Source: a phage
Sequence record: PZ349761.1
Direction: 5' to 3' (one strand)
DNA length: 45,774 nucleotides
The notes under the pieces are model-generated. The model saw only the letters and a program-made list of their open reading frames with translations. It did no database searches and was not told the origin of the DNA. Position 1 is the stretch's first letter; each line of letters begins with the position of its first letter. The translations under genes and the position numbers were made by a program. Positions 3,146 through 44,557 of the stretch are shown in pieces.

Positions 3146-3163
3146 ATAGCACGAATTGCTAAA
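3146..3163 (+). promoter_or_regulatory. conserved palindromic box ATAGCACgaattGCTAAA
   Basis: Directly after TAA stop; followed by terminator-like hairpin CCCGC-tcct-GCGGG-TTTT (3164-3180), TATAGT 3184-3189, leader CACCAATCGAGAGG. Confidence 0.6.
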
Positions 3164-3307
3164 CCCGCTCCTGCGGGTTTTGTTATAGTTAGTTCACACC
3201 AATCGAGAGGAAATGGAAATGAAGCAATACCCATCTAGCAATCACCATAACGGTCACATCATGCAGTTCTATCGCCACAATCTGAAGACGAAAGGAGTAT
3301 TTGGAAA

Positions 3308-7164: not shown

Positions 7165-8730
7165 ATGTCTTTAGTGTGGGAAGAAATGACCATTCAGGAA
7201 AAGATGGCTGTCAAAGCGATATCAGAGCATAGCTTCGAGGGTTTTCTGCGCTGCTGGTTCCAAATAACACAAGGTGAGCGATACATCCCTAACTGGCATC
7301 ACAAGTACTTGTGCAGAATCATTGACGAGATTATCGCAGGGGAACGCAAGGACACCATCATTAACATAGCTCCGGGCAGCGGAAAGACGGAAATCACATC
7401 AATTCACTTCCCTGTATACTCTATGTTGAAGCTGAAGAAGGTTCGAAACCTTAATATCTCTTTCGCCGACTCAAACGTAAAGCGCAACTCAAAACGAGTG
7501 CGTGACTTAATATCATCAAAGGAGTTCCAGGAACTCTGGCCTTGCAAGTTCGGGACAAATAAGGATGACGAGATTCAGATCGTTGACGACAGCGGAAAGG
7601 TTAGATTCGAGTCCATATCAGCATCAAAAGGAGGCAGGATTACTGGCACGCGTGGTGGTTATATCACCGACACATACAGCGGCGCGGTAATGCTGGATGA
7701 CTTCGATAAACCAGACGAGATGTTTTCATCCGTATACAGGGCAAAGAGTCACACGCTGCTTGGCAATACCATTCGCTCACGCCGCGCTAGCTCGGTAAAA
7801 GGGAAGGCAACTCCAATTATCCAGATTCAGCAGCGACTTCACGTCAATGACTCAACGTGGTTCATGCTTAGCGGTGGTATGGGCATTGATTTTGATTTGG
7901 TGAAGATACCAGCACTGGTTACTGAAGATTACGTTGATACATTACCTGACTGGATTAAACAGCAATTCATTGATGACGTATTATCAAGCGAAAATATCGA
8001 GCGTGACGGAGTGAAGTATTACAGCTACTTCCCAGGGAAAGAGTCCGTGCATGACCTGGTTGCGATGTGGGATAGTGACCCGTACACATTCCTTAGCCAG
8101 TATCAACAAGAACCTGTAGCATTGGGCGGAAATCTTATTAACGTAGACTGGTTCCAGCGTCTTAGTGATACATTCAGGCCTCCAGTTAAGTATGATTACA
8201 GATTCATCACATGCGATACCGCGATGACTACAAAGAGTTATAGTGACTTCTCTGTACTTCAGTTGTGGGGATACAAGGATGCTAAGATTTACCTGATAGA
8301 CCAGCTCAGAGGAAAATGGGAAGCGCCGGAGTTGGAGGCTGAACTACTGGACTTCGAGAAGAAATCAAGGGCAACCAGTCAATCAGATGGCATACTCCGA
8401 AAGATCATCATCGAGAAGAAAGCCTCTGGTATCGGCCTGATTCAATCGGCAGGTAGAGTTATGCGAACACCGATAGAGCCATACGTTCCGGATAACGACA
8501 AGCTGACTCGCGTAATGAGCGCATTGCCACAGATTAAGGCTGGTAATGTCGTTCTTCCAGAGTCTGCGCCGTGGCTAAACGGATTGCTTACTGAGGTTGC
8601 TGCTTTTACGGCAGATGATAGCCACAAACACGACGACCAGATTGACTGTCTAACAATGGCAGTAAACCTTGTACTTAACATTGCGGACGACCCAAAAGCG
8701 CGACTAATGCGCATAGCGGGAATTAAATAG
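7165..8730 (+). CDS. terminase large subunit
   Basis: 521 aa; P-loop-like APGSGKTE near N-terminus, acidic nuclease-type C-terminal half; canonical position before portal. Confidence 0.85.
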   Translation: MSLVWEEMTIQEKMAVKAISEHSFEGFLRCWFQITQGERYIPNWHHKYLCRIIDEIIAGERKDTIINIAPGSGKTEITSIHFPVYSMLKLKKVRNLNISFADSNVKRNSKRVRDLISSKEFQELWPCKFGTNKDDEIQIVDDSGKVRFESISASKGGRITGTRGGYITDTYSGAVMLDDFDKPDEMFSSVYRAKSHTLLGNTIRSRRASSVKGKATPIIQIQQRLHVNDSTWFMLSGGMGIDFDLVKIPALVTEDYVDTLPDWIKQQFIDDVLSSENIERDGVKYYSYFPGKESVHDLVAMWDSDPYTFLSQYQQEPVALGGNLINVDWFQRLSDTFRPPVKYDYRFITCDTAMTTKSYSDFSVLQLWGYKDAKIYLIDQLRGKWEAPELEAELLDFEKKSRATSQSDGILRKIIIEKKASGIGLIQSAGRVMRTPIEPYVPDNDKLTRVMSALPQIKAGNVVLPESAPWLNGLLTEVAAFTADDSHKHDDQIDCLTMAVNLVLNIADDPKARLMRIAGIK

Positions 8731-8744
8731 CACGAATTGCTAAA
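8727..8744 (+). promoter_or_regulatory. conserved palindromic box ATAGCACgaattGCTAAA
   Basis: TAG stop of terminase gene inside box; TATAGT 8765-8770; leader CACACCAACGAGAGG; ATG 8802. Confidence 0.6.
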
Positions 8745-8801
8745 CGCTAGAGCCACGGATGGCGTATAGTTACTTCACACCAACGAGAGGAGAAAAGACA
8801 A

Positions 8802-22382: not shown

Positions 22383-25300
22383 ATGGCACAAATGATCAAA
22401 ACAAACATGAGGCTTTGTGATATGGCTGAAGATATTAAGATTTATGGTGCTAAGGGTGGTAGCCAGAAGCAGCATCAACCAGTGGAGCAGGAAGATAACC
22501 TCATTTCACTAAACAAGGTTAAGGTTCTTTTGGCTGTTGCTGATGGTGAGGTTGACCCCAATTTCTCAATGAAAGATTTATACCTTGCCGACGTTCCGGT
22601 GCAAAACCAGGATGGTAGCTACAACTACGAAGGTGTTCGCGCTGAGTTCCGTGCCGGCACGCAGTATCAGGATTATATCGCCGGGCTTGACGGTGCTAAC
22701 TCAGAGATTCAGGCATCCAGAGAAATCACGAACGATACCCCGTACATCATTGCGGTTAACAATACTCAGCTATCAGCGATTCGTGTAAAGCTATATTGGC
22801 CTAGACTGGTTAAGCAAGAAAGCAATGGAGACCTGAACGGAACAACTTGTGAGTACGCAATTGACCTGTCTGTTAATGGTGGAGCATATCAGGAATACAC
22901 TCGCGGAGTTGCTAACGGCAAGACAACTACAGGTTATGACCGCAGCATTCGCGTGAACCTTCCGGCTGAATTTGATAGCGCACTGGTTCGAATCCGCAAG
23001 ATTACACCCGATTCAACAAGCAGTACGCTGGTCAATGGTATGCAGATTACAACCTATCAGGAAGTAATCGACGCCAAATTCCGCTACCCGCTTACGGCTC
23101 TGGTCTATGTTGAGTTTGGTTCTGACTTGTTCCCTAACGGCATCCCGACAATCTCAATAAAGAAGCGTTGGAAGCTAATTCAGGTACCGACAAACTACGA
23201 CCCGGAGACAAGGACTTACAGCGGGACATGGAATGGCTTATTCAAGATGGCATGGTCGAATAACCCGGCATGGGTTCTCTATGACCTGGTGACAAACCGA
23301 CGCTATGGGCTTGACCAGCGAGAGTTGGGTGTAGAGATTGATAAATGGGGATTGTATGAAGCCGCGCAATTCTGTGACCAGATGGTTCCGGATGGTAAGG
23401 GTGGTTTAGAGCCGCGTTACCTTTGCGATATGGTTGTGCAAAACAAGGTTGAGGCCTACACGCTAATTCGTGATATCTGCTCAATCTTCCGTGGTCTGAC
23501 TTTCTATGACGGTGAAAATATTGGTATCGTGGTTGATAAGCCTCGCAACCCATCTTACATCTTCACCAATGATAACGTTGTAAACGGATTGTTCAGTCGA
23601 ACCTTTGCCAGTGATAAAAGCCTTTACACCACGGCAAACGTCCAGTTTGATGATGTAGAGAACAACTATCAACAGGATGTTGAGCCGGTATTTGAATTAG
23701 AGGCAACTCGTCGTTTTGGATTTAACCCTGTAGATTTAACTGCGATTGGATGCACTCGCAGAAGTGAAGCAAACAGACGTGGAAGATGGCTCCTGAAAAC
23801 AAACCTGAGAAGCGAAACTATCAGCTTCACTACAGGGTTGGAAGGTATGATTCCGATGATTGGCGAGGTAATTGCGGTCAATGACGCCGCATGGTCTAGC
23901 AACTATCAGTTAAACCTTTCCGGTCGTATTGAGTCAGTTCAGGGGTTGCAGGTTTTTACCCCTTTTAAAGTTGACGCAGCGCCTGGTGACAGAATTCTTC
24001 TGAACAAGCCAGACGGAAGTCCAGAGGCAAGAACTATTGCCAGCGTTTCGGAGGATGGAAGAACAATCAACCTTAACACTGCTTTTAGTTTTGTAGCTCA
24101 ACCTGACACTGTTTTCGCAATCGATAAGGATAATCTCGCGCTTCAACAGTATGTTGTGACCGGTATTCAAAAAGCAGATTCTGATGGCTCTGATTCATTC
24201 CAGTATACGATTACCGCAGTAGAGTATGACCCGAACAAGTATGACGAGATTGACTACGGCGTTAACATTGTTGACCGCCCGACTTCAATCGTGGAGCCTG
24301 ACAGATTGTCGCCGCCTGAGAACTTAACAGTGTCAAGCTACAGTAAGGTTGTTCAGGGATTGTCAGTTGAGACAATGGTTATCGGATGGGATAAAGCGCC
24401 ATACGCCAAAACCTACAATGTTCAGTGGAGGAAAGAAAATGGTAACTGGATTAACGTACCCAGAACAGCTAGCACAGAGGTTGATATCGAAGGTATTTAC
24501 GCAGGAATCTATGACGTTAGGGTTCGTAGCGTATCAGATACTGAAAACGTGTCTGCCTGGTCTGACATTGTAACGGTATCGCTAACTGGCAAGATTGGTA
24601 GGCCATCTGCACCTACGGTTGTCACGGCTTCAACTGATGAGGTATTTGGCATCCGTGTTAAGTGGGGTTTCCCTGATGGATCCGGTGACACTGCTTACAC
24701 TGAACTTCAGCAGGTTCCTGATAATGGTGACGGTACTTACAATCCTGATAACGCAAGTCTGTTGACCTTACTTCCGTACCCAGCTTATGAATACTGGCAC
24801 ACGCCGATTCAGTCAGGCAAGGTTATCTGGTATCGCGCAAGATTGATTGACAGAATCGGCAACACTTCTGACTGGTCTGATTTTGCTAGAGGCATGAGTA
24901 CTGACGATGCCAATATTATCAACGAATACATCAAGGTTGATATTGAGGGTTCGGAAGGATTTAAATACCTTGAGCAGAATGCGATTCAAAAGAATCAGGA
25001 CATTCAGAATCAGGCTGAGGCAATTATCGAGAACGCACTGGCTAACGATACTGACGTTCGTCGCATGACAAGGGAAAACGGCGCCAGAAAGGCTGAATAT
25101 GTTCAAGCAGTGAATCTGATAGCTGATGAAACTCAGGCGCGTGTAGAGGCACTAACGCAGCTTAAAGCGCAGATTGATGATGAGGTTGTGGCATCAATTA
25201 CTGAAGTTCAGACGGCGCTAGCTACAGAGGAGCAAGCAAGAACTACTGCCGACACTCAGCTATCAGCAAGGATTGGCGATAACGAGGCGGCGCTAAATCA

Positions 25301-25808
25301 GAAGTTAGACGCTTTTGCTAACGCTGAGTCAACTGGTGTGCAGTACGGCATCAGTTTGGGTCTTAACTATAATGGGCAGACATATTCATCTGGCATGAGC
25401 ATGGAGCTTGTTGGAGCTGGTGATAATGTTCGCAGTCAATTCATTTTTGACGCAAACAGATTCGCAATCAGTAACGGCATTGGTTCTGGATCCGGTCAGT
25501 GGAAACTCCCCTTCGTTGTCGAGAACGGAAACGTAATCATCCAAAGCGCAGTAATCGGCGATGGCTCAATTACTAACGCTAAGATTGGTAATATAATTTC
25601 ATCAAATGATTATGTAGCAGGCTCTCAGGGGTGGGCGATACTGAAAAGTGGTGCGTCAGAGTTCAATAACACAACTGTAAGGGGCAATCTTTACGCTAAC
25701 AATGGTAACTTTGCTTTTAACGGAACCAATAACACGGTTCAGATTAACAATAACGGAATCACTGTAAACTTACCGAACGGAGGAAGAGTGGTAGTTGGAG
25801 TGTGGTAA
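22383..25808 (+). CDS. central tail fibre / tail tip protein (gpJ-like)
   Basis: 1141 aa, largest tail gene after I; repetitive beta-rich middle region. Confidence 0.8.
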   Translation: MAQMIKTNMRLCDMAEDIKIYGAKGGSQKQHQPVEQEDNLISLNKVKVLLAVADGEVDPNFSMKDLYLADVPVQNQDGSYNYEGVRAEFRAGTQYQDYIAGLDGANSEIQASREITNDTPYIIAVNNTQLSAIRVKLYWPRLVKQESNGDLNGTTCEYAIDLSVNGGAYQEYTRGVANGKTTTGYDRSIRVNLPAEFDSALVRIRKITPDSTSSTLVNGMQITTYQEVIDAKFRYPLTALVYVEFGSDLFPNGIPTISIKKRWKLIQVPTNYDPETRTYSGTWNGLFKMAWSNNPAWVLYDLVTNRRYGLDQRELGVEIDKWGLYEAAQFCDQMVPDGKGGLEPRYLCDMVVQNKVEAYTLIRDICSIFRGLTFYDGENIGIVVDKPRNPSYIFTNDNVVNGLFSRTFASDKSLYTTANVQFDDVENNYQQDVEPVFELEATRRFGFNPVDLTAIGCTRRSEANRRGRWLLKTNLRSETISFTTGLEGMIPMIGEVIAVNDAAWSSNYQLNLSGRIESVQGLQVFTPFKVDAAPGDRILLNKPDGSPEARTIASVSEDGRTINLNTAFSFVAQPDTVFAIDKDNLALQQYVVTGIQKADSDGSDSFQYTITAVEYDPNKYDEIDYGVNIVDRPTSIVEPDRLSPPENLTVSSYSKVVQGLSVETMVIGWDKAPYAKTYNVQWRKENGNWINVPRTASTEVDIEGIYAGIYDVRVRSVSDTENVSAWSDIVTVSLTGKIGRPSAPTVVTASTDEVFGIRVKWGFPDGSGDTAYTELQQVPDNGDGTYNPDNASLLTLLPYPAYEYWHTPIQSGKVIWYRARLIDRIGNTSDWSDFARGMSTDDANIINEYIKVDIEGSEGFKYLEQNAIQKNQDIQNQAEAIIENALANDTDVRRMTRENGARKAEYVQAVNLIADETQARVEALTQLKAQIDDEVVASITEVQTALATEEQARTTADTQLSARIGDNEAALNQKLDAFANAESTGVQYGISLGLNYNGQTYSSGMSMELVGAGDNVRSQFIFDANRFAISNGIGSGSGQWKLPFVVENGNVIIQSAVIGDGSITNAKIGNIISSNDYVAGSQGWAILKSGASEFNNTTVRGNLYANNGNFAFNGTNNTVQINNNGITVNLPNGGRVVVGVW

Positions 25809-25812
25809 TAAA

Positions 25813-25840
25813 TAAAGCCCCTTAATTGGGGCTTTTCTTT
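25813..25840. terminator. bidirectional terminator between convergent J and RBP genes
   Basis: AGCCCC-ttaatt-GGGGCT hairpin, T-rich on both sides. Confidence 0.6.
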
Positions 25841-26802
25841 TAGTAGAAGTTTGGGATAAATGGAAGTGCCATTGATATGTTCGTGTCGAAAGGAAACTGA
25901 GCGCCTGTCTGAGTTGAGTAGTTACCTATTACAGATCCAGGAACAGCCCTAACGGAGCCTCCAGACATGCAAACACCCTTGTATCGTAAGTTGTTATACC
26001 CTCCGGTAACTCTAGTTGTAGCGCCGCACCTAAGCAGCGGGAAGAAACCACCATTTATTGACTGATATCCATTGCTTATTTGTATAAATCCACCAAGAAC
26101 GAATGGGCGGCGAACACTTGAAAAAACAATCTGACCAGAACTATTTGACATTGTGAGTCCAGGCCCGGCCGTTGGTGGTTCATTCCTGAATATCACCAGC
26201 TGAACATGGGTACTTGCCGCAACATCATCTGTACCTCCGTAGGTTATATCCCTGCACCATATTGTTGATCCATCTGATTCAAGTGATACGTTTGGATTAT
26301 CCCACTTGCCGAATGGTATTCCGCTAACTGGTAGCGATGCTGCACCGTTAACCTGTATGCCACCAACCCAGGCCGCAGACATTAGCCGCGAGTTGCTTGA
26401 TATAGCAAGGAAATCAGTTGAGTTCTCAACAAGTATTCCAGGACTTGATGAGGATGAAGCCGGTAGTATCTCAAAGCAATTACCAGCAAAGTCAATTATT
26501 CGACCATTAGCACCATTGAAGTTGCTGAGAGTTATCCTGCCAGTTCCGTCATTTACCTTTTGAAACCCGTTCATGTAATAAACTTCGGGTATAACATCGT
26601 AAGCGTCTACGTGTACGGCCTTTGTTGGTAGGCAGAAGACCGTAGAGCCAGGTGACATTGTCAATCCAAAATCCCAAAAACTCGCCGGGGTTGAAAGTCC
26701 ATTAGTATTTATCGAGCCAGTCACCGCAGGCGCCCTTAACCCTGCCGTAATCTCCATAGCTGGCCTTCCATCATTCAGGTCAATCAATATACCTTGTGGC
26801 AT
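25840..26802 (-). CDS. candidate receptor-binding protein (tail tip accessory)
   Basis: About 320 aa Gly/Ser/Asn-rich beta-type protein; ATG overlaps stop of upstream lipoprotein gene (TAATG); position next to J. Confidence 0.45.
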   Translation of the reverse strand: MPQGILIDLNDGRPAMEITAGLRAPAVTGSINTNGLSTPASFWDFGLTMSPGSTVFCLPTKAVHVDAYDVIPEVYYMNGFQKVNDGTGRITLSNFNGANGRIIDFAGNCFEILPASSSSSPGILVENSTDFLAISSNSRLMSAAWVGGIQVNGAASLPVSGIPFGKWDNPNVSLESDGSTIWCRDITYGGTDDVAASTHVQLVIFRNEPPTAGPGLTMSNSSGQIVFSSVRRPFVLGGFIQISNGYQSINGGFFPLLRCGATTRVTGGYNNLRYKGVCMSGGSVRAVPGSVIGNYSTQTGAQFPFDTNISMALPFIPNFY

Positions 26803-27047
26803 TATTTCCACTCCTTACTTCCGTGATCAGCTACTGAGCCACCATAACCGCCGCCAGCCTTGCTTTCAATGCCAGCGTAGCGAATATCAACCTCACCAGC
26901 CGGAACAACTACACCGCCTTTCCACTTAGCTACGCACACGCCGTTTGCTTGTGTTGCACACCACCCATCAGGTCGAGGACCAGAAGAACAACCTACTGTC
27001 ATGATTACTGCTGCGGCGATGATTGAAAGTTTGATTAGGTTAGTCAT
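26802..27047 (-). CDS. small lipoprotein, candidate superinfection-exclusion protein
   Basis: [22 protein letters not shown] signal peptide with lipobox; start set to ATG 27047 downstream of minus-strand cassette. Confidence 0.55.
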
Positions 27048-27095
27048 TTTGTATTCCTCATTAAGTTGTTTCGTTTCGATGGAGTAATAGTACAA

Positions 27096-27593
27096 CCGTC
27101 TAGCCTGAATGTCTTTAGCTATTCGTGCTAATGTTTACGCGTAACCGATGTAACTCGATGTATACAATCTCATCCGCGGAAAATGATATACGCACTGTTA
27201 CGCCAACTTACGCATTTGTTACATTAAAATATCTATATATATCAACCTTTTACTCTTATTATTATTATTATATATATTACTGTGTATATCATGTAACTAC
27301 TTCTATAGAGTGTTCCGGTTATAATTTTAATATCATGTGATTTTATACAGTATTGCACGGCAGCTATACCAATGCACCATCAGCAATAAATGATATACAC
27401 GATATACACGCCGGTTACATTGAGCTATAGATGGGCTGAGATGCCAAAAAACGTAACTAATGGCAATGCCTACACGGAATTACAAGGATTTACGCGTAAA
27501 CTTAAATCAACGATTGGCAAAACCAATTGGACTGGCTACGGTGCTGAATATATAGTTACCTCATCGAAATCAAAAAACCAGAGAGATACATAA
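27096..27593. repeat. second AT-rich repeat-laden control region: (TTA)5 at about 27256-27271, TTTACGCGTAAA palindromes (27134-27144, 27489-27500), GATATACAC direct repeat (27400-27418)
   Basis: 27207-27295 is a roughly 85 percent identical direct repeat of 115-200; track ORFs here look spurious. Confidence 0.6.
27114..27132 (-). promoter_or_regulatory. conserved box variant (minus strand reads ATTAGCACgaataGCTAAA)
   Basis: Downstream on minus strand: TACTAT, CCATCGAAACGAAAC (27071-27082), ATG 27047. Confidence 0.55.
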
Positions 27594-27788
27594 ATGACCT
27601 ACTACATTATCAAAGAGAAAAACAACGCACTGTTCGGCGACTGCTACTTTGGAGGTGAAGCCGGTTACACTACAGATAAAAATGAGGCAGACCGATTCGA
27701 AACTAAAGAAGATGCCAAATCTTTACTGATCGGATACTTTACAGAGGAAGAGTTGAAGTCTATTAAGATTGTTAAGGTTAAGGAGTGA
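27594..27788 (+). CDS. hypothetical small protein (64 aa)
   Basis: ORF preceded by TTGGAC-N18-TATAGT and leader CCTCATCGAAATC. Confidence 0.45.
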   Translation: MTYYIIKEKNNALFGDCYFGGEAGYTTDKNEADRFETKEDAKSLLIGYFTEEELKSIKIVKVKE

Positions 27789-29388: not shown

Positions 29389-29406
29389 ATAGCACGAATT
29401 GCTAAA
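29389..29406 (+). promoter_or_regulatory. conserved palindromic box ATAGCACgaattGCTAAA
   Basis: Directly after TAA stop of dam; hairpin GGGGTA..TACCCC, TATGAT 29427-29432, leader CCATAAACAACGAACGAGG, ATG 29462. Confidence 0.6.
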
Positions 29407-29461
29407 GACAAAATTAAAAGGTGGGGTATGATTACCCCATAAACAACGAACGAGGTTAAAG

Positions 29462-30616: not shown

Positions 30617-33199
30617 TTAACCTATTTTAGTGTAAGTCCATTGGTATGTTGCAGCTCCCTTGGCAGTTATCCCGACAGCTCTTCCACTTACATCCATTGA
30701 AGTGAAAGCGCCAGTTTTTGTAATTGTTATTGATGATGTGGAACCATCAAAAAGTACGTCAGCAATTACACTATAGTTAGGTCCAGCACCAGTAACCCAG
30801 GTCGAAACCTTGTATAAACCAGCGTTGTTTGGCAACTCAAAAAGACCAGTTGAAACATTCGCCTGAACAGCCATCGCGCCCTTTCCGGTGTACACACCGT
30901 CAGTTTTAAGACCTAATGATGAATATGTTTGCTTATAGCCACCAATGATGGCACCACCCATAGGTTCAGTAAACCAGTTCACATTACCCTGACTAACAAC
31001 AGATATCGCTGGAGACCCCCCTTTAGCTGACTGAAACCTACCGCTTAAAATGTCAATTCTAGATGCTGAATCCTGGGCGTAGATAGTTACAGGATACCCA
31101 CCAGAACCAGTGTAAACCAAGCCGTTATCATTAATGTCATCTTCAGACGAGTCAATGATTACATGGGAAGTTCCAGACGCCTTGATGAACGAAACAACAC
31201 CGCTAGAACCAGCACCTGTTGTTCTAACTTCATTCTTCCATGATGTTAGGCCTGAAATTCTGCCATTTGAGTTATTAAACCTAATCAGGCAACAATCTTG
31301 CGATCCGTTGGTGTCAATAATGTTACCTTCAACGTCCATCCCTAGTATGTTTACGCTATGGCTGTTGATGAAGTTAATCCCAGCACCACCGTAAGAACCA
31401 GATGTTGATGATATATTACTGGCATCCATTGCGCAGTTAATCATTGTAACGCTCATTACCGAACCAAATTCATAAGGTGAAATGCAATCTGATGCGTAAC
31501 AAGTCTCAAGCAATATTGTCGTTCCCGTCGCCTTTATGAATCCAGTCCTGCAATTCCTGGCCCAAACATTCTGTAGCTTAGTCTGGTATGTTCCAGTGGT
31601 GTCCGTGTAGCAACCCCATGCTCCATGGACTGTGCAATCTTTGATACATGAATTTTCTAGCCCTGTTGCAGAACCAACATTAGAAACGAAGTTAAATGCT
31701 ATCTTTTGATCATTCCCTGATGCTGAGGTAGGTGTAGTGCCTGGGTTATAAAAAATGTAAAGTCCCTCAATAAACACTTGATACATTCTTATGTTTTGCG
31801 CATCACCCTGAACCAGGGCGAATAGGTTTATGTTCCCATCAACTGAGATAAATGTTTGCGCCCTGTTAATTTGGTTTGTTCCCTCGCCAATAATTCTTGT
31901 ACTGTTGCCAATCCTCACCGTCCTGTTAATGAACATAAAACCTTTTGGTATGTATACAGTTTTACCGGTATTAACTGCCGCCTGAAGCGCAACTGCGTCA
32001 AGTGACTCGTTAAGGTTTGATGCAAATGGATAAACAAACCGCGCATCCTCAATTGTCGAGAATTTAGATGAAAGAGGAACTAAAGTACCATTGTTTGTAG
32101 CACCAAAATCCATGACGTTAACAAAGTCACCAAGTTTACTATCCTTACTCCTTTCTACAAATGAGGCCAATGTAGATTTGTAATTCATCGAACTGAATTG
32201 TGATTGAGCCTCTATCTTTGAATAAACATCTGATCTTGGGTAAACCTCTGATTTTGAATAAACATCAAGCAAACCCCTAGCTCTTTCAGCAGTAGCGCCG
32301 CCAACCGACTTCCCGCCTTCAACCATAATGTATTCGCGTAAGTAGAAGTTTCTTGATCCTTTAGCGCCCGCCATCCTGAGGTGAGTAGCCCTATATGATG
32401 AATCAGAATTCAATGCCGGATATATATCAATCTCATAAGAGCCTTGAGCTCCACTTGTGCCCCTAACACATATAAAAAGCGTAGCGTTGGCTGTAGTGTA
32501 TGTCGCAGCTAGTGATGCTGGAACGTTTGTCATGTTAGATACTACAACTCGATAATTACCACCACTTTTAAATTCAACTTGCTGCCAATCCAATGATGGC
32601 ATAGCTATTGTCGATGTGCTTGCGATACCCTCATTGGCTAGAGTAACCAAAGTTGCAGCATCACCAGCGTTGGCAATGACATTAACTGTGTTGTTGTATG
32701 CCTCCTGCGCACTACTTGCGCTTGATTCAGCCTGAGCCTTGCTTGTAGCGGCAGCTTGCTGGCTGGCAGATGCAGCCGATTCGCTTGAAGCCGCATTTGT
32801 TTCGCTTGCCTTCGCCTCATCAACTAATCGTTGTAACTTATCGAAATCAAAATCACCAGATTCAGCCAACTCAACAAGTGACGCAACCTCAGTTTCACGT
32901 GACTGATAGTAACGAAGAGTTTCCGCAACATCCTGAGCTAGCCCCTGAACGGTAATTCCATCATGCGCAAGGATAGCGTAACCAGTTCCAGCAGGAACAG
33001 TTTCGGAGTTAGGGTTGTAAACATTAATCTGCGTATCGCTGATAATTTCTGAGATGGTGTAAATCTGTACTGGTTCAGTTTTAAATACAATGGTTGCACC
33101 TACGCGAATCAGTGTAAGAGGTGCTTTCCATGTTGTCCCGACGCCAGTCACCTCACCACTTGCTGCTAGAGAAGCTGTTCCTGAGTCATAAATTGCCAT
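30617..33199 (-). CDS. lateral tail fibre / tailspike with predicted right-handed beta-helix
   Basis: About 860 aa; Ala/Ser-rich N-terminal linker, long Gly/Asn/Thr/Ser-rich repetitive region; start set to ATG 33199 with RBS GGAG (track start is GTG 33229). Confidence 0.65.
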   Translation of the reverse strand: MAIYDSGTASLAASGEVTGVGTTWKAPLTLIRVGATIVFKTEPVQIYTISEIISDTQINVYNPNSETVPAGTGYAILAHDGITVQGLAQDVAETLRYYQSRETEVASLVELAESGDFDFDKLQRLVDEAKASETNAASSESAASASQQAAATSKAQAESSASSAQEAYNNTVNVIANAGDAATLVTLANEGIASTSTIAMPSLDWQQVEFKSGGNYRVVVSNMTNVPASLAATYTTANATLFICVRGTSGAQGSYEIDIYPALNSDSSYRATHLRMAGAKGSRNFYLREYIMVEGGKSVGGATAERARGLLDVYSKSEVYPRSDVYSKIEAQSQFSSMNYKSTLASFVERSKDSKLGDFVNVMDFGATNNGTLVPLSSKFSTIEDARFVYPFASNLNESLDAVALQAAVNTGKTVYIPKGFMFINRTVRIGNSTRIIGEGTNQINRAQTFISVDGNINLFALVQGDAQNIRMYQVFIEGLYIFYNPGTTPTSASGNDQKIAFNFVSNVGSATGLENSCIKDCTVHGAWGCYTDTTGTYQTKLQNVWARNCRTGFIKATGTTILLETCYASDCISPYEFGSVMSVTMINCAMDASNISSTSGSYGGAGINFINSHSVNILGMDVEGNIIDTNGSQDCCLIRFNNSNGRISGLTSWKNEVRTTGAGSSGVVSFIKASGTSHVIIDSSEDDINDNGLVYTGSGGYPVTIYAQDSASRIDILSGRFQSAKGGSPAISVVSQGNVNWFTEPMGGAIIGGYKQTYSSLGLKTDGVYTGKGAMAVQANVSTGLFELPNNAGLYKVSTWVTGAGPNYSVIADVLFDGSTSSITITKTGAFTSMDVSGRAVGITAKGAATYQWTYTKIG

Positions 33200-33222
33200 T
33201 GTGTAGAGTCTCCATTTGTAAA

Positions 33223-33240
33223 ATAGCACGAATTGCTAAA
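33223..33240 (+). promoter_or_regulatory. conserved palindromic box ATAGCACgaattGCTAAA with no plus-strand gene downstream
   Basis: Lies about 24 nt upstream of the minus-strand tail fibre ATG and lacks the downstream -10 and leader. Confidence 0.5.
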
Positions 33241-33264
33241 GTGGATTGTAGCATCTTTGAGTCA

Positions 33265-36844: not shown

Positions 36845-37260
36845 AGATTACAGATAAAGAAGATTACATTGAGTTTTACCCTGGTCCGGTTAAGTCATGC
36901 CCTAAAGAGGATGACGAACAAATCTTTTGCTCTGATTGGGTTAAGTATAACTACCCAGATATGGTATTTTTCCATTGCGTGAATGAGGGAAAGAAAACCA
37001 TTGGTCAAGCAAGAAAAGACCAGGCTAAGGGGCTTCTAAAAGGCGTATCAGACTGTATGTTTCTTATTCCTGAATCACTTCGAGGTAAGTATCCTTTCGG
37101 AGCTATAGAGCTAAAGAGGGCTGGCAAAACTCAAGCAAGTCCAGTCAGCGAAGAACAGAAGGCATTCCTGAAAAGTGTAATGGAATCAGGCGGTTTCTCG
37201 GCAGTCGCCTACGGACGCGAGGGTTTTCTGGCAGCATTTAAAGAAATGATTTCAAAATAG
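36841..37260 (+). CDS. VRR-NUC-type nuclease domain protein
   Basis: D..E.K pattern (SDCMF..GAIELKRAGK); ATGA overlap with helicase. Confidence 0.55.
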   Translation: MKITDKEDYIEFYPGPVKSCPKEDDEQIFCSDWVKYNYPDMVFFHCVNEGKKTIGQARKDQAKGLLKGVSDCMFLIPESLRGKYPFGAIELKRAGKTQASPVSEEQKAFLKSVMESGGFSAVAYGREGFLAAFKEMISK

Positions 37261-37274
37261 CACGAATTGCTAAA
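37257..37274 (+). promoter_or_regulatory. conserved palindromic box ATAGCACgaattGCTAAA
   Basis: TAG stop inside box; TATTAT 37295-37300; CATCGAAACGA 37306-37316; ATG 37339. Confidence 0.6.
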
Positions 37275-37338
37275 GACGAATCGGTGAGGTGGTGTATTAT
37301 CACTTCATCGAAACGAAACAGAAAGAGAGAGAAACAAA

Positions 37339-44476: not shown

Positions 44477-44538
44477 TTTGCTTTCCTTTGTGTGTTTCGT
44501 TTCTATGAGCTGAATATACAGTAGAAGCCCAGAAGGGC

Positions 44539-44557
44539 TTTAGCAATTAGTGCTATT
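44539..44557 (-). promoter_or_regulatory. conserved palindromic box (minus strand reads AATAGCACtaattGCTAAA)
   Basis: Upstream ORF 44540-44791 reads through the box and stops at the TAA of GCTAAA; hairpin AAGCCC-ttct-GGGCTT follows. Confidence 0.55.

Follow-up and report, generated by a model that had tools for sequence, protein, structure and literature searches.

Next to the J-like tail gene of the phage genome analysed here (the window, 45,774 nucleotides, PZ349761.1), two genes run leftward on the minus strand, which raises the question of what they do for the phage and on which receptor of the host they act. A preliminary description of this DNA had read them as a lipoprotein gene followed by the gene of a candidate receptor-binding protein (RBP), had suggested that the pair may set host range and exclusion, and had named FhuA, BtuB and LptD as receptors to consider. 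We regard it as highly probable that the pair is an LptD-type module of the kind with which small T1/Rtp-like siphoviruses recognize their host and exclude further phages. What is established here is how the genes are arranged, to which families and fold their products belong, that key residues are conserved and that the synteny is kept; the features are collected in Table 1.

Table 1. Features of the leftward two-gene unit and its surroundings, in positions of the window.
Feature	Position	Strand	Details
J-like central tail fibre / tail tip protein	22383..25808	plus	1141 aa; Pfam and PHROG matches
Bidirectional intrinsic terminator hairpin	25814..25835	both	8-bp stem, T-run on each strand
RBP gene	26802..25840	minus	ATG 26802-26800; 320 aa, 963-bp ORF; LptD type, DUF6453
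TAATG stop/start overlap	26804-26800	minus	one A common to lipoprotein stop and RBP ATG
SD AAGGAG, RBP gene	26811..26816	minus	read from sequence; within lipoprotein gene 3' end
Lipoprotein gene	27047..26802	minus	ATG 27047, TAA 26804-26802; 81 aa precursor, 62 aa mature; Rtp45 family
SD GAGGA, lipoprotein gene	27055..27059	minus	read from sequence; 7 nt 5' of ATG 27047
Promoter-like cassette	27087..27130	minus	inverted repeat + AAAGAC 27130-27111, 18-nt spacer, TACTAT 27092-27087

The gene layout agrees with what had been described: the minus-strand ORF downstream of J encodes an 81-aa lipoprotein with a lipobox (Cys20, PF24052 match), and its TAATG coupling to the gene of the 320-aa protein is borne out by the overlap, in which the RBP start shares one A with the preceding stop. 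The RBP gene is convergent with the J gene and ends 32 nt past the J stop, the two being parted by a terminator hairpin with 5 GC pairs in its stem, the RNA of which folds with -14.4 kcal/mol on the plus strand (z -2.45) and -13.8 kcal/mol on the minus strand (z -4.4). The J homologue matches Pfam FNIII-A_GpJ (8.7e-39) and Phage_Tail_Tip (2.2e-35), also Phage-tail_3, as well as PHROG 31 ('central tail fiber J'). Over aa 1-900, it shares 98% identity with Rtp43, and it presumably serves as the platform to which the RBP attaches.

The 320-aa protein, which is rich in Gly, Ser and Asn as previously stated (12.2%, 10.6% and 7.2%, respectively), matches PF20051 (DUF6453) with an E-value of 2.4e-139 and 464 bits against a cut-off of 25, residues 4-297 aligning to profile positions 1-291. 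Sequence and structure searches both lead to the RBP of phage Oekolampad. By phmmer, residues 2-320 match PDB chain 9rpt_C with an E-value of 9.6e-68, and a PDB sequence search with E up to 0.01 returned this chain alone; pb5, which like Llp is present in the PDB, was not found. The AF2 model is all-beta (pLDDT 87.3), and Foldseek aligns it to the same chain (E 5.2e-22, TMt 0.91), the sole match below 1e-3. No NCBIfam model matched either the RBP or the lipoprotein. Furthermore, LptD-type RBP genes measure about 930-960 bp and lie directly downstream of gpJ, and the RBP gene found here fits this size and place. The closest relatives are those of T145P1 (98.8% identical) and OzMSK (96%, twelve substitutions), followed by Sfin-1 (68%) and the Dhillonvirus relative Psq-1 (45%), while the counterparts in Rtp (Rtp44), Bas01 and Bas02 are 41% identical. 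Among 63 homologues, the N-terminal residues 1-25 are nearly invariant, with M1, G4, I7, N10, D11, M16, I18 and P25 present in 63 of 63 sequences, and residues 31-110 are the most variable; mean entropy is 0.6 at residues 1-20 and reaches 2.3-2.8 at residues 31-50 and 91-110. We thus take the 320-aa protein to be an LptD-type terminal RBP, and its sequence predicts that this allele, too, binds LptD.

The lipoprotein belongs to the Phage_lipoprotein family PF24052 (E 2.3e-39, 133.6 bits vs a cut-off of 27) and matches Rtp45 as present in its complex with LptDEM (PDB 9rps_D) with an E-value of 3.6e-37. It is 93% identical to its counterpart in OzMSK, 87% to that in Bas01, 84% to Rtp45, 75% to that in Bas02 and about 40% to that in the Dhillonvirus relative Psq-1. 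A PROSITE-type lipobox rule is satisfied at Cys20, behind a hydrophobic core with a Kyte-Doolittle value of 2.4, and the residue at +2 is Ser; sorting to the outer membrane goes with the lack of Asp at this position. The cysteine positions (20, 30 and 38) are the same in Rtp45, and a pair equivalent to Cys30/Cys38 also occurs in the homologues of Sfin-1, Psq-1 and EP335. Residues 30-35, which in Rtp45 pair with LptD, read CATQAN here vs CATQAS in Rtp45, and the hairpin segment is conserved as well; close to its C-terminus, the protein has an insertion of five residues, rich in Gly, that Rtp45 does not share. In the available portions of the literature, the support for exclusion by Rtp45-type lipoproteins is structural, and no in vivo exclusion assay was found there. 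Judged by family and residues, the present protein is probably a superinfection-exclusion lipoprotein of the Rtp45 family.

The arrangement J(+)/RBP(-)/lipoprotein(-), including the one-base overlap, recurs in Rtp, Bas01, Bas02, BEK3 and OzMSK, and in Sfin-1 and Psq-1 the RBP gene likewise follows directly after J and is convergent with it. Gene order and strands are those of the Braunvirinae LptD module (Rtp44/Rtp45, bas01_0028/0029, bas02_0024/0025), and the present pair falls into the allele group of OzMSK/MSK (CPT_vB_ecoS_OzMSK_038/039), Rogue1 and Veterinaerplatzvirus T145P1. OzMSK differs in that a DNA methylase gene lies between the cassette and the lipoprotein gene, an insertion that the present phage lacks. 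Rtp has the same upstream cassette and a similar J and lipoprotein, but its RBP is the divergent partner noted above. DNA homology to Rtp is interrupted between the RBP stop codon (25840) and 26768, 35 nt inside the 5' end of the RBP gene; since it breaks at the borders of this gene, the RBP allele has been exchanged as a cassette. Oekolampad (Bas18, Dhillonvirus; PDB 9RPT/9RPW/9RQI) shares the Pfam families, the fold and the place after gpJ, yet belongs to another genus, with about 45% identity for the RBP and about 40% for the lipoprotein (both measured on Psq-1) and 37% for J. Farther away, the DUF6453 homologue of Gordonclarkvirinae podoviruses lies next to tail-fibre genes, and their Rtp45-family lipoprotein is encoded, unlinked, among early genes; the available portions of the literature on LptD-binding phages hold no mention of LptD dependence for this group.

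For relatives of both proteins, the interaction with the LPS translocon has been visualized. Cryo-EM structures were reported for the RBP of Oekolampad with LptDE (PDB 9RPT) and for Rtp45 on the periplasmic side of LptDE(M) (PDB 9RPS), and the LptD substitutions D352Y and Y671N abolish binding of RBP_Oeko (PMC12685063). In the Rtp45 complex, residues 30-35 pair with LptD residues 318-323, Cys30 and Cys38 form a disulfide, and LptD EL4 is shifted by up to 20 Å (PMC12685063). Maffei et al. matched the locus type downstream of gpJ to LptD specificity and described lptD resistance mutants (PMC8594841). Homologues of both genes have thus been shown to be an RBP and an LptD-bound lipoprotein, which supports the earlier proposal of an RBP with its cognate superinfection-exclusion lipoprotein next to J. 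From the three receptors that had been named, LptD is retained, given the match to 9rpt_C and the 96% identity to the RBP of OzMSK, while FhuA and BtuB drop out, as the evidence leads to LptD only. Similarly, the suggestion that the pair sets host range was too broad: it applies to the terminal receptor, whereas strain-level host range of such phages is reported to depend mainly on lateral fibres and O-antigen (PMC8594841). The module as such is already known; it was described in publications of 2021-2025, and genes that are 96-99% identical are present in GenBank.

From these relatives we infer that the present alleles have the same function, and the following course of events can be envisaged. 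The conserved N-terminal ~25 residues of the RBP would attach it to the J-like fibre tip, and its variable distal loops would enter the extracellular mouth of the translocon LptDE, leading to irreversible adsorption. In the infected cell, the 81-aa precursor would be exported, lipidated at Cys20 and sorted, by virtue of Ser at +2, to the inner leaflet of the outer membrane. The 62-aa mature lipoprotein may then sit on the periplasmic side of LptD, where its residues 30-35 would pair with the base of strand beta6 and its hairpin would be pushed up the lumen of the LptD barrel. This would displace EL4 and keep LptD out of the open state on which the RBP depends, so that infected cells and debris would cease to adsorb this phage and other LptD-dependent phages. 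Both genes would be co-transcribed leftward from the phage-wide cassette element, with transcription of the unit stopping at the terminator that it shares with J; because of the TAATG coupling, cells that make the RBP should also make the blocker. The docking of the allele found here is not confidently modellable, since AlphaFold3 mispredicted details of Rtp45 and of the two LptDE complexes (PMC12685063).

In organization, such a module follows the logic of T5 pb5/Llp and of the T1 FhuA module with Cor, where the gene of a dedicated tail-tip RBP adjoins that of a small periplasmic outer-membrane lipoprotein by which the receptor is altered from within (PMC9586334). The likeness is one of functional analogy, with no homology detected beyond the signal peptide. 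The receptor of T5 and T1 is the TonB-dependent transporter FhuA, and Llp acts through long-range allostery, whereas Rtp45 physically displaces EL4 (PMC12685063); moreover, the T1 module consists of two co-directional ORFs, with cor alone on the opposite strand. Could the present lipoprotein nevertheless be a Cor/Llp-type FhuA blocker, with a target unrelated to the neighbouring gene? One relative is annotated in GenBank as 'Cor superinfection exclusion protein', the size class, the lipobox and the place near J are the same, and BLASTP aligns it to T1 Cor with an E-value of 4e-5. This alignment, however, covers residues 7-25 alone, that is, signal peptide and lipobox. Against PF24052, T1 Cor scores 17.7 bits and thus stays under the 27-bit cut-off that the lipoprotein far exceeds, and the PDB search with E up to 1, in which Rtp45 stands out, returned no Llp chain. 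We hence rejected membership in the Cor or Llp families and consider an FhuA blocker extremely improbable. Just as little speaks for the 320-aa protein being a non-virion moron product, with J itself binding the receptor as in lambda. The category of PHROG 1265 ('moron, auxiliary metabolic gene and host takeover; membrane protein'), RefSeq records labelled 'membrane protein' and the position of the gene on the strand opposite the tail genes would fit such a role, but the Kyte-Doolittle maximum over 19 residues is 1.1, leaving no TM segment, and the model is that of an all-beta soluble protein, so that we discarded the annotation as a membrane protein. In addition, the DUF6453 homologue of Klebsiella Webervirus is co-directional with J, 1 nt downstream of it, and that of Gordonclarkvirinae comes after tail-fibre genes.

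Somewhat more weight, though still little, is due to the idea that the protein is indeed an RBP of the DUF6453 fold and that the divergent Rogue1/OzMSK-type allele uses another outer-membrane protein, or a second receptor besides. The present RBP shares no more than ~41-45% identity with those RBPs for which structures or genetics give direct proof, and its residues 31-110 belong to a hypervariable part of the family; besides, Bas01 uses NupG as a second receptor, which it needs via a J domain (bioRxiv 10.64898/2026.04.02.716166). Yet OzMSK was unable to infect two different LptD loop mutants, a link between RBP and LptD that was made at the level of the phage and not by a binding assay (PMC13035648), and the family downstream of gpJ is described, in the available part of the preprint, as one LptD-specific family whose members share >30% identity and are tied to LptD without exception (bioRxiv 10.64898/2026.04.02.716166). 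The partner lipoprotein, too, is close to Rtp45, which was solved on LptD. As for NupG, the J protein of the present phage resembles that of Bas02, a phage without a reported need for it, and lacks the 33-aa insert found in Bas01 J after aa 929; because this Bas01-specific insert is missing, a NupG-type second receptor contacted via J is unlikely. Altogether, we judge a receptor other than, or in addition to, LptD to be improbable, and LptD remains the preferred receptor.

A module of this kind in a genome predicts LptD as receptor, resistance through changes in EL4/EL5/EL11 and cross-exclusion among LptD phages. As LptD is essential and conserved, phages that dock to it are attractive for therapy; they are also troublesome laboratory contaminants, since fhuA strains are not protected against them. 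The nearest GenBank labels ('membrane protein', 'hypothetical protein', 'Cor') can be corrected, a gain in annotation rather than a discovery. More speculatively, the Rtp45-type lipoprotein could serve as a universal 'LptD lock', freely reassorting with different RBP alleles and cross-excluding all LptD-dependent phages, possibly including Gordonclarkvirinae, with the cassette representing an activator-dependent regulon. Such a lock is conceivable because the lipoprotein acts on the receptor and not on the RBP, and free reassortment fits the identities to Rtp (84% for the lipoprotein vs 41% for the RBP) with breakpoints at the RBP borders. We hold this wider reading to be possible, albeit rather doubtful; if it is true, the inverted-repeat cassette, centred near -42 of the -10-like box, would time blocker and RBP together.

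The cassette itself is a recurring element. The 20-mer TAGCACGAATAGCTAAAGAC, located on the minus strand 64 nt upstream of the lipoprotein gene, is present eight times in the window, where 0 copies are expected (self-BLAST), and holds an inverted repeat TAGCA-N5-(A/T)GCTA, here TAGCA-N5-TGCTA. In seven of the eight copies, a -10-like hexamer TAnnnT follows 17-18 nt on, and then a conserved leader, an SD and an ATG; copy number and common downstream architecture together show that the element is real. The cassette also lies upstream of rtp45 in Rtp, and in OzMSK it is duplicated around the DNA methylase insertion. A generic sigma-70 scan of 25600-27700 gave 6 weak sites vs 4.8 expected, which is chance level. 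Hence, of the minus-strand cassette promoter that had been proposed, the cassette holds, and its recurrence suggests that it may act as a promoter. Rtp52 and inverted repeats are reportedly treated in the Rtp genome description of Wietzorrek et al. from 2006, and the cassette may be linked to an Rtp52-like regulator. In the intergenic neighbourhood upstream of the unit (27135-27499), a palindrome (TTACGCGTAA) and a motif (GTGTATATCAT) were observed, both of which are confined to this neighbourhood rather than spread genome-wide.

Both minus-strand ORFs beside the J homologue lie where the preliminary description had placed them, and the TAATG at their junction gives the lipoprotein stop codon and the start codon of the receptor-binding protein (RBP) one base in common. 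The hairpin separating this unit from J is a bidirectional terminator. At the DNA level, the region shares 96% identity with Veterinaerplatzvirus T145P1 and 90-92% with SU57 and OzMSK/MSK, all Rtp-like Braunvirinae of the Drexlerviridae, and the usual T1-like gene set (RecE-like exonuclease, Dam methylase, Erf recombinase, primase) flanks the unit. Gene order and TAATG coupling are kept in Rtp, Bas01, Bas02, BEK3 and OzMSK, while Sfin-1 and Psq-1 have a 2-nt gap instead of the overlap.

Features of the unit, the recurring cassette and related loci (window coordinates unless a fetched record, L number, is given)
Feature	Position	Strand	Remarks
Lipoprotein gene	ATG 27047 to TAA 26804-26802	minus	81 aa
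RBP gene	ATG 26802-26800, end at 25840	minus	320 aa
Shine-Dalgarno GAGGA, lipoprotein gene	27059-27055	minus	
Shine-Dalgarno AAGGAG, RBP gene	26816-26811	minus	
J homologue	22383-25808	convergent with unit	1141 aa; Pfam FNIII-A_GpJ, Phage_Tail_Tip, Phage-tail_3
Hairpin between J and unit	25814-25835	both	8-bp GC-rich stem, T-runs either side
Cassette copies	1827-1846, 3147-3166, 8728-8747, 29390-29409, 33224-33243, 37258-37277	plus	
Cassette copies	27111-27130, 44536-44555	minus	
DUF6453 homologue, EP335	L006 4953-5984		E 2e-23; directly after tail-fibre genes
Rtp45-family lipoprotein, EP335	L009 2486-2767		E 3.5e-36; among small early-type genes
Hotspot, OzMSK	L001 4409-4425 and 5164-5180		DNA methylase inserted; cassette and leader doubled, both sides of insert
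Hotspot, Bas02	L012 5649-6338		Dcm-like methylase
Hotspot, Bas01	L013 10419-11108		Dcm-like methylase
Hotspot, BEK3	L008 2302-3708		Roi-like DNA-binding protein and hypothetical protein

The earlier reading of this unit as a receptor-binding protein plus an exclusion lipoprotein is supported by homologues, which specify the receptor as LptD. The 320-aa product is indeed rich in Gly, Ser and Asn (12.2, 10.6 and 7.2%), matches Pfam DUF6453 over its full length (E 2.4e-139) as well as PHROG 1265, and in a PDB sequence search retrieves one family alone, chain C of 9RPT/9RPW/9RQI (9rpt_C, E 9.6e-68, residues 2-320). This chain is the RBP of phage Oekolampad, observed by cryo-EM inserted in the extracellular mouth of the open-state LPS translocon LptDE (PMC12685063). 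Furthermore, an AlphaFold2 model computed with 63 homologues as input is confident (pLDDT 87.3) and all-beta, and its sole significant Foldseek match in the PDB is 9rpt_C (E 5e-22; TM 0.91, normalised on the target). Its closest characterised relative is OzMSK_038 (96% amino acid identity), and OzMSK cannot infect two E. coli strains carrying LptD loop deletions (PMC13035648). Maffei et al. paired this allele type downstream of gpJ with LptD in seven phages (PMC8594841), and one protein family (>30% identity) at this locus is specifically associated with LptD (bioRxiv 10.64898/2026.04.02.716166).

The lipoprotein precursor, in which the first 20 residues are followed by Ser-Ser, obeys the lipobox rule (Cys20, Ser at +2), as had been claimed, and yields a mature protein of 62 aa with two more cysteines, Cys30 and Cys38. 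Its Pfam family is PF24052 (E 2.3e-39), and its PDB match is 9rps_D (E 3.6e-37), which is Rtp45 of phage Rtp (84% identity). In the cryo-EM structure, Rtp45 occupies the periplasmic face of LptD, close to strands 5-8 and sandwiched between LptE and LptM, and forms a beta-sheet through its residues 30-35 with LptD 318-323; it carries a Cys30-Cys38 disulfide, and its hairpin climbs through the LptD lumen and shifts EL4, an extracellular loop, by as much as 20 Å, which blocks the open state required by the RBP (PMC12685063). Cys20, Cys30 and Cys38 are all retained in the window lipoprotein, residues 30-35 read CATQAN versus CATQAS in Rtp45, and the hairpin segment is near-identical; the main difference is a 5-residue Gly-rich insertion close to the C-terminus of the window protein.

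Other assignments of the two proteins were rejected. T5 pb5/Llp and T1/Cor hold as functional analogies (PMC9586334), yet the window pair does not belong to their families: the BLASTP alignment with T1 Cor covers the signal peptide alone, T1 Cor falls below the PF24052 cut-off, the PDB sequence search returns no Llp chain, and the T1 FhuA module is organised differently. The label 'Cor' in one record of the lipoprotein family is contradicted by the PDB evidence. Likewise, the label 'membrane protein' or 'moron' attached to the RBP family (PHROG 1265, several RefSeq records) conflicts with fold, PDB evidence and hydropathy, no hydrophobic segment being found in the 320-aa protein.

An RBP paired with an LptD-locking lipoprotein is the reading best supported by the family and structure matches. 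The RBP would be mounted on the J fibre tip, as its nearly invariant N-terminal 25 residues and published proposals suggest, and would dock into LptDE. The lipoprotein, presumably co-transcribed and translationally coupled with the RBP, would acquire its lipid anchor, be targeted to the outer membrane and lock LptD from inside, such that infected cells and debris would no longer adsorb LptD-dependent phages. This instance is already known: the literature describes the module, its receptor and how exclusion works, and near-identical genes occur in GenBank. As to the proposed role in host range, the choice of terminal receptor stands, the broader host range does not. An 870-aa ORF (30617-33229, minus strand) without Pfam match occupies the position of the lateral tail fibre/tailspike gene of relatives; in OzMSK the gene there (OzMSK_047) has a pectate-lyase-like domain in its annotation. 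The 870-aa product probably determines the primary receptor and would thereby be the main factor in strain-level host range.

Comparison with Rtp revealed a mosaic, with J 98% (aa 1-900) and the lipoprotein 84% identical, whereas the RBP reaches just 41%. DNA homology is lost from the RBP stop codon (25840) and returns 35 nt inside the RBP 5' end (26768); judged by this alignment, the RBP is a clean allelic replacement with breakpoints at gene borders. Sfin-1 (Tunavirus) has the opposite pattern (RBP 68%, lipoprotein 45% identical to the window proteins). RBP alleles have therefore been swapped independently of the lipoprotein, as would be expected of a lipoprotein that acts on the receptor and not on the RBP. 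J is least conserved versus Rtp at aa 1051-1100 (66%), in keeping with a published co-variation between J tip and RBP type (bioRxiv 10.64898/2026.04.02.716166). The J of Bas01, a phage reported to require NupG as well (same preprint), has a 33-aa insertion that is absent from the window J.

The claim of a cassette promoter holds in part: a recurring element is present, while a generic sigma-70 scan at the unit gave nothing above chance. The 20-mer TAGCACGAATAGCTAAAGAC at 27130-27111 has eight copies in the window versus 0 expected; the 20-nt element, TAGCACGAAT(T/A)GCTAAAG.., contains the inverted repeat TAGCA-N5-TGCTA. In all but one of the eight, a TAnnnT box 17-18 nt on is followed by a similar leader (…CATCGAAACGAAAC…), a Shine-Dalgarno sequence and an ATG start codon. 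The repeat centre would lie near -42 relative to the expected start, a class II activator position, and the set resembles a phage-specific promoter/operator regulon. In Rtp, this element also stands ahead of rtp45. Conserved inverted repeats were reportedly noted in the Rtp genome paper and attributed to the regulator Rtp52. The plus-strand copy at 33224-33243, flanked by the 870-aa ORF and a primase-like ORF, both on the minus strand, has no downstream gene; a hairpin, CCTCCCGAAGGAGG, comes after it. This copy may be an orphan promoter, an antisense promoter or a remnant.

In the Klebsiella Webervirus Opt-817 (vB_KpnD_Opt-817; L005 547-4957), the RBP homologue (35% identity in global alignment) is co-directional with J, starting 1 nt after the J stop, and no lipoprotein gene is annotated within the fetched J-RBP neighbourhood; module architecture therefore varies between genera. 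Other Klebsiella phages have lipoprotein homologues at ~59% identity. Gordonclarkvirinae podoviruses (~76 kb; EP335, SU10, ES17, TH43, etc.) encode both families at loci separated by about 45 kb, which points to LptD as their putative terminal receptor; LptD is not named for this group in the BASEL-2 paper.

The divergent AT-rich intergenic region carries further repeats. The window has exactly two copies of the perfect palindrome TTACGCGTAA (0.05 expected), one just upstream of the lipoprotein-gene cassette (27135-27144) and one within the first rightward small ORF (27490-27499), which may form a local operator pair. The motif GTGTATATCAT (0.7 expected genome-wide) has four copies at 27183-27409, confined to this region, two of which overlap the start region at 27390-27409, and a 64-nt AT-rich stretch (27208-27271) recurs with 87.5% identity at 117-180, close to the window's left end. 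In relatives, the space between cassette and lipoprotein gene is an insertion hotspot.
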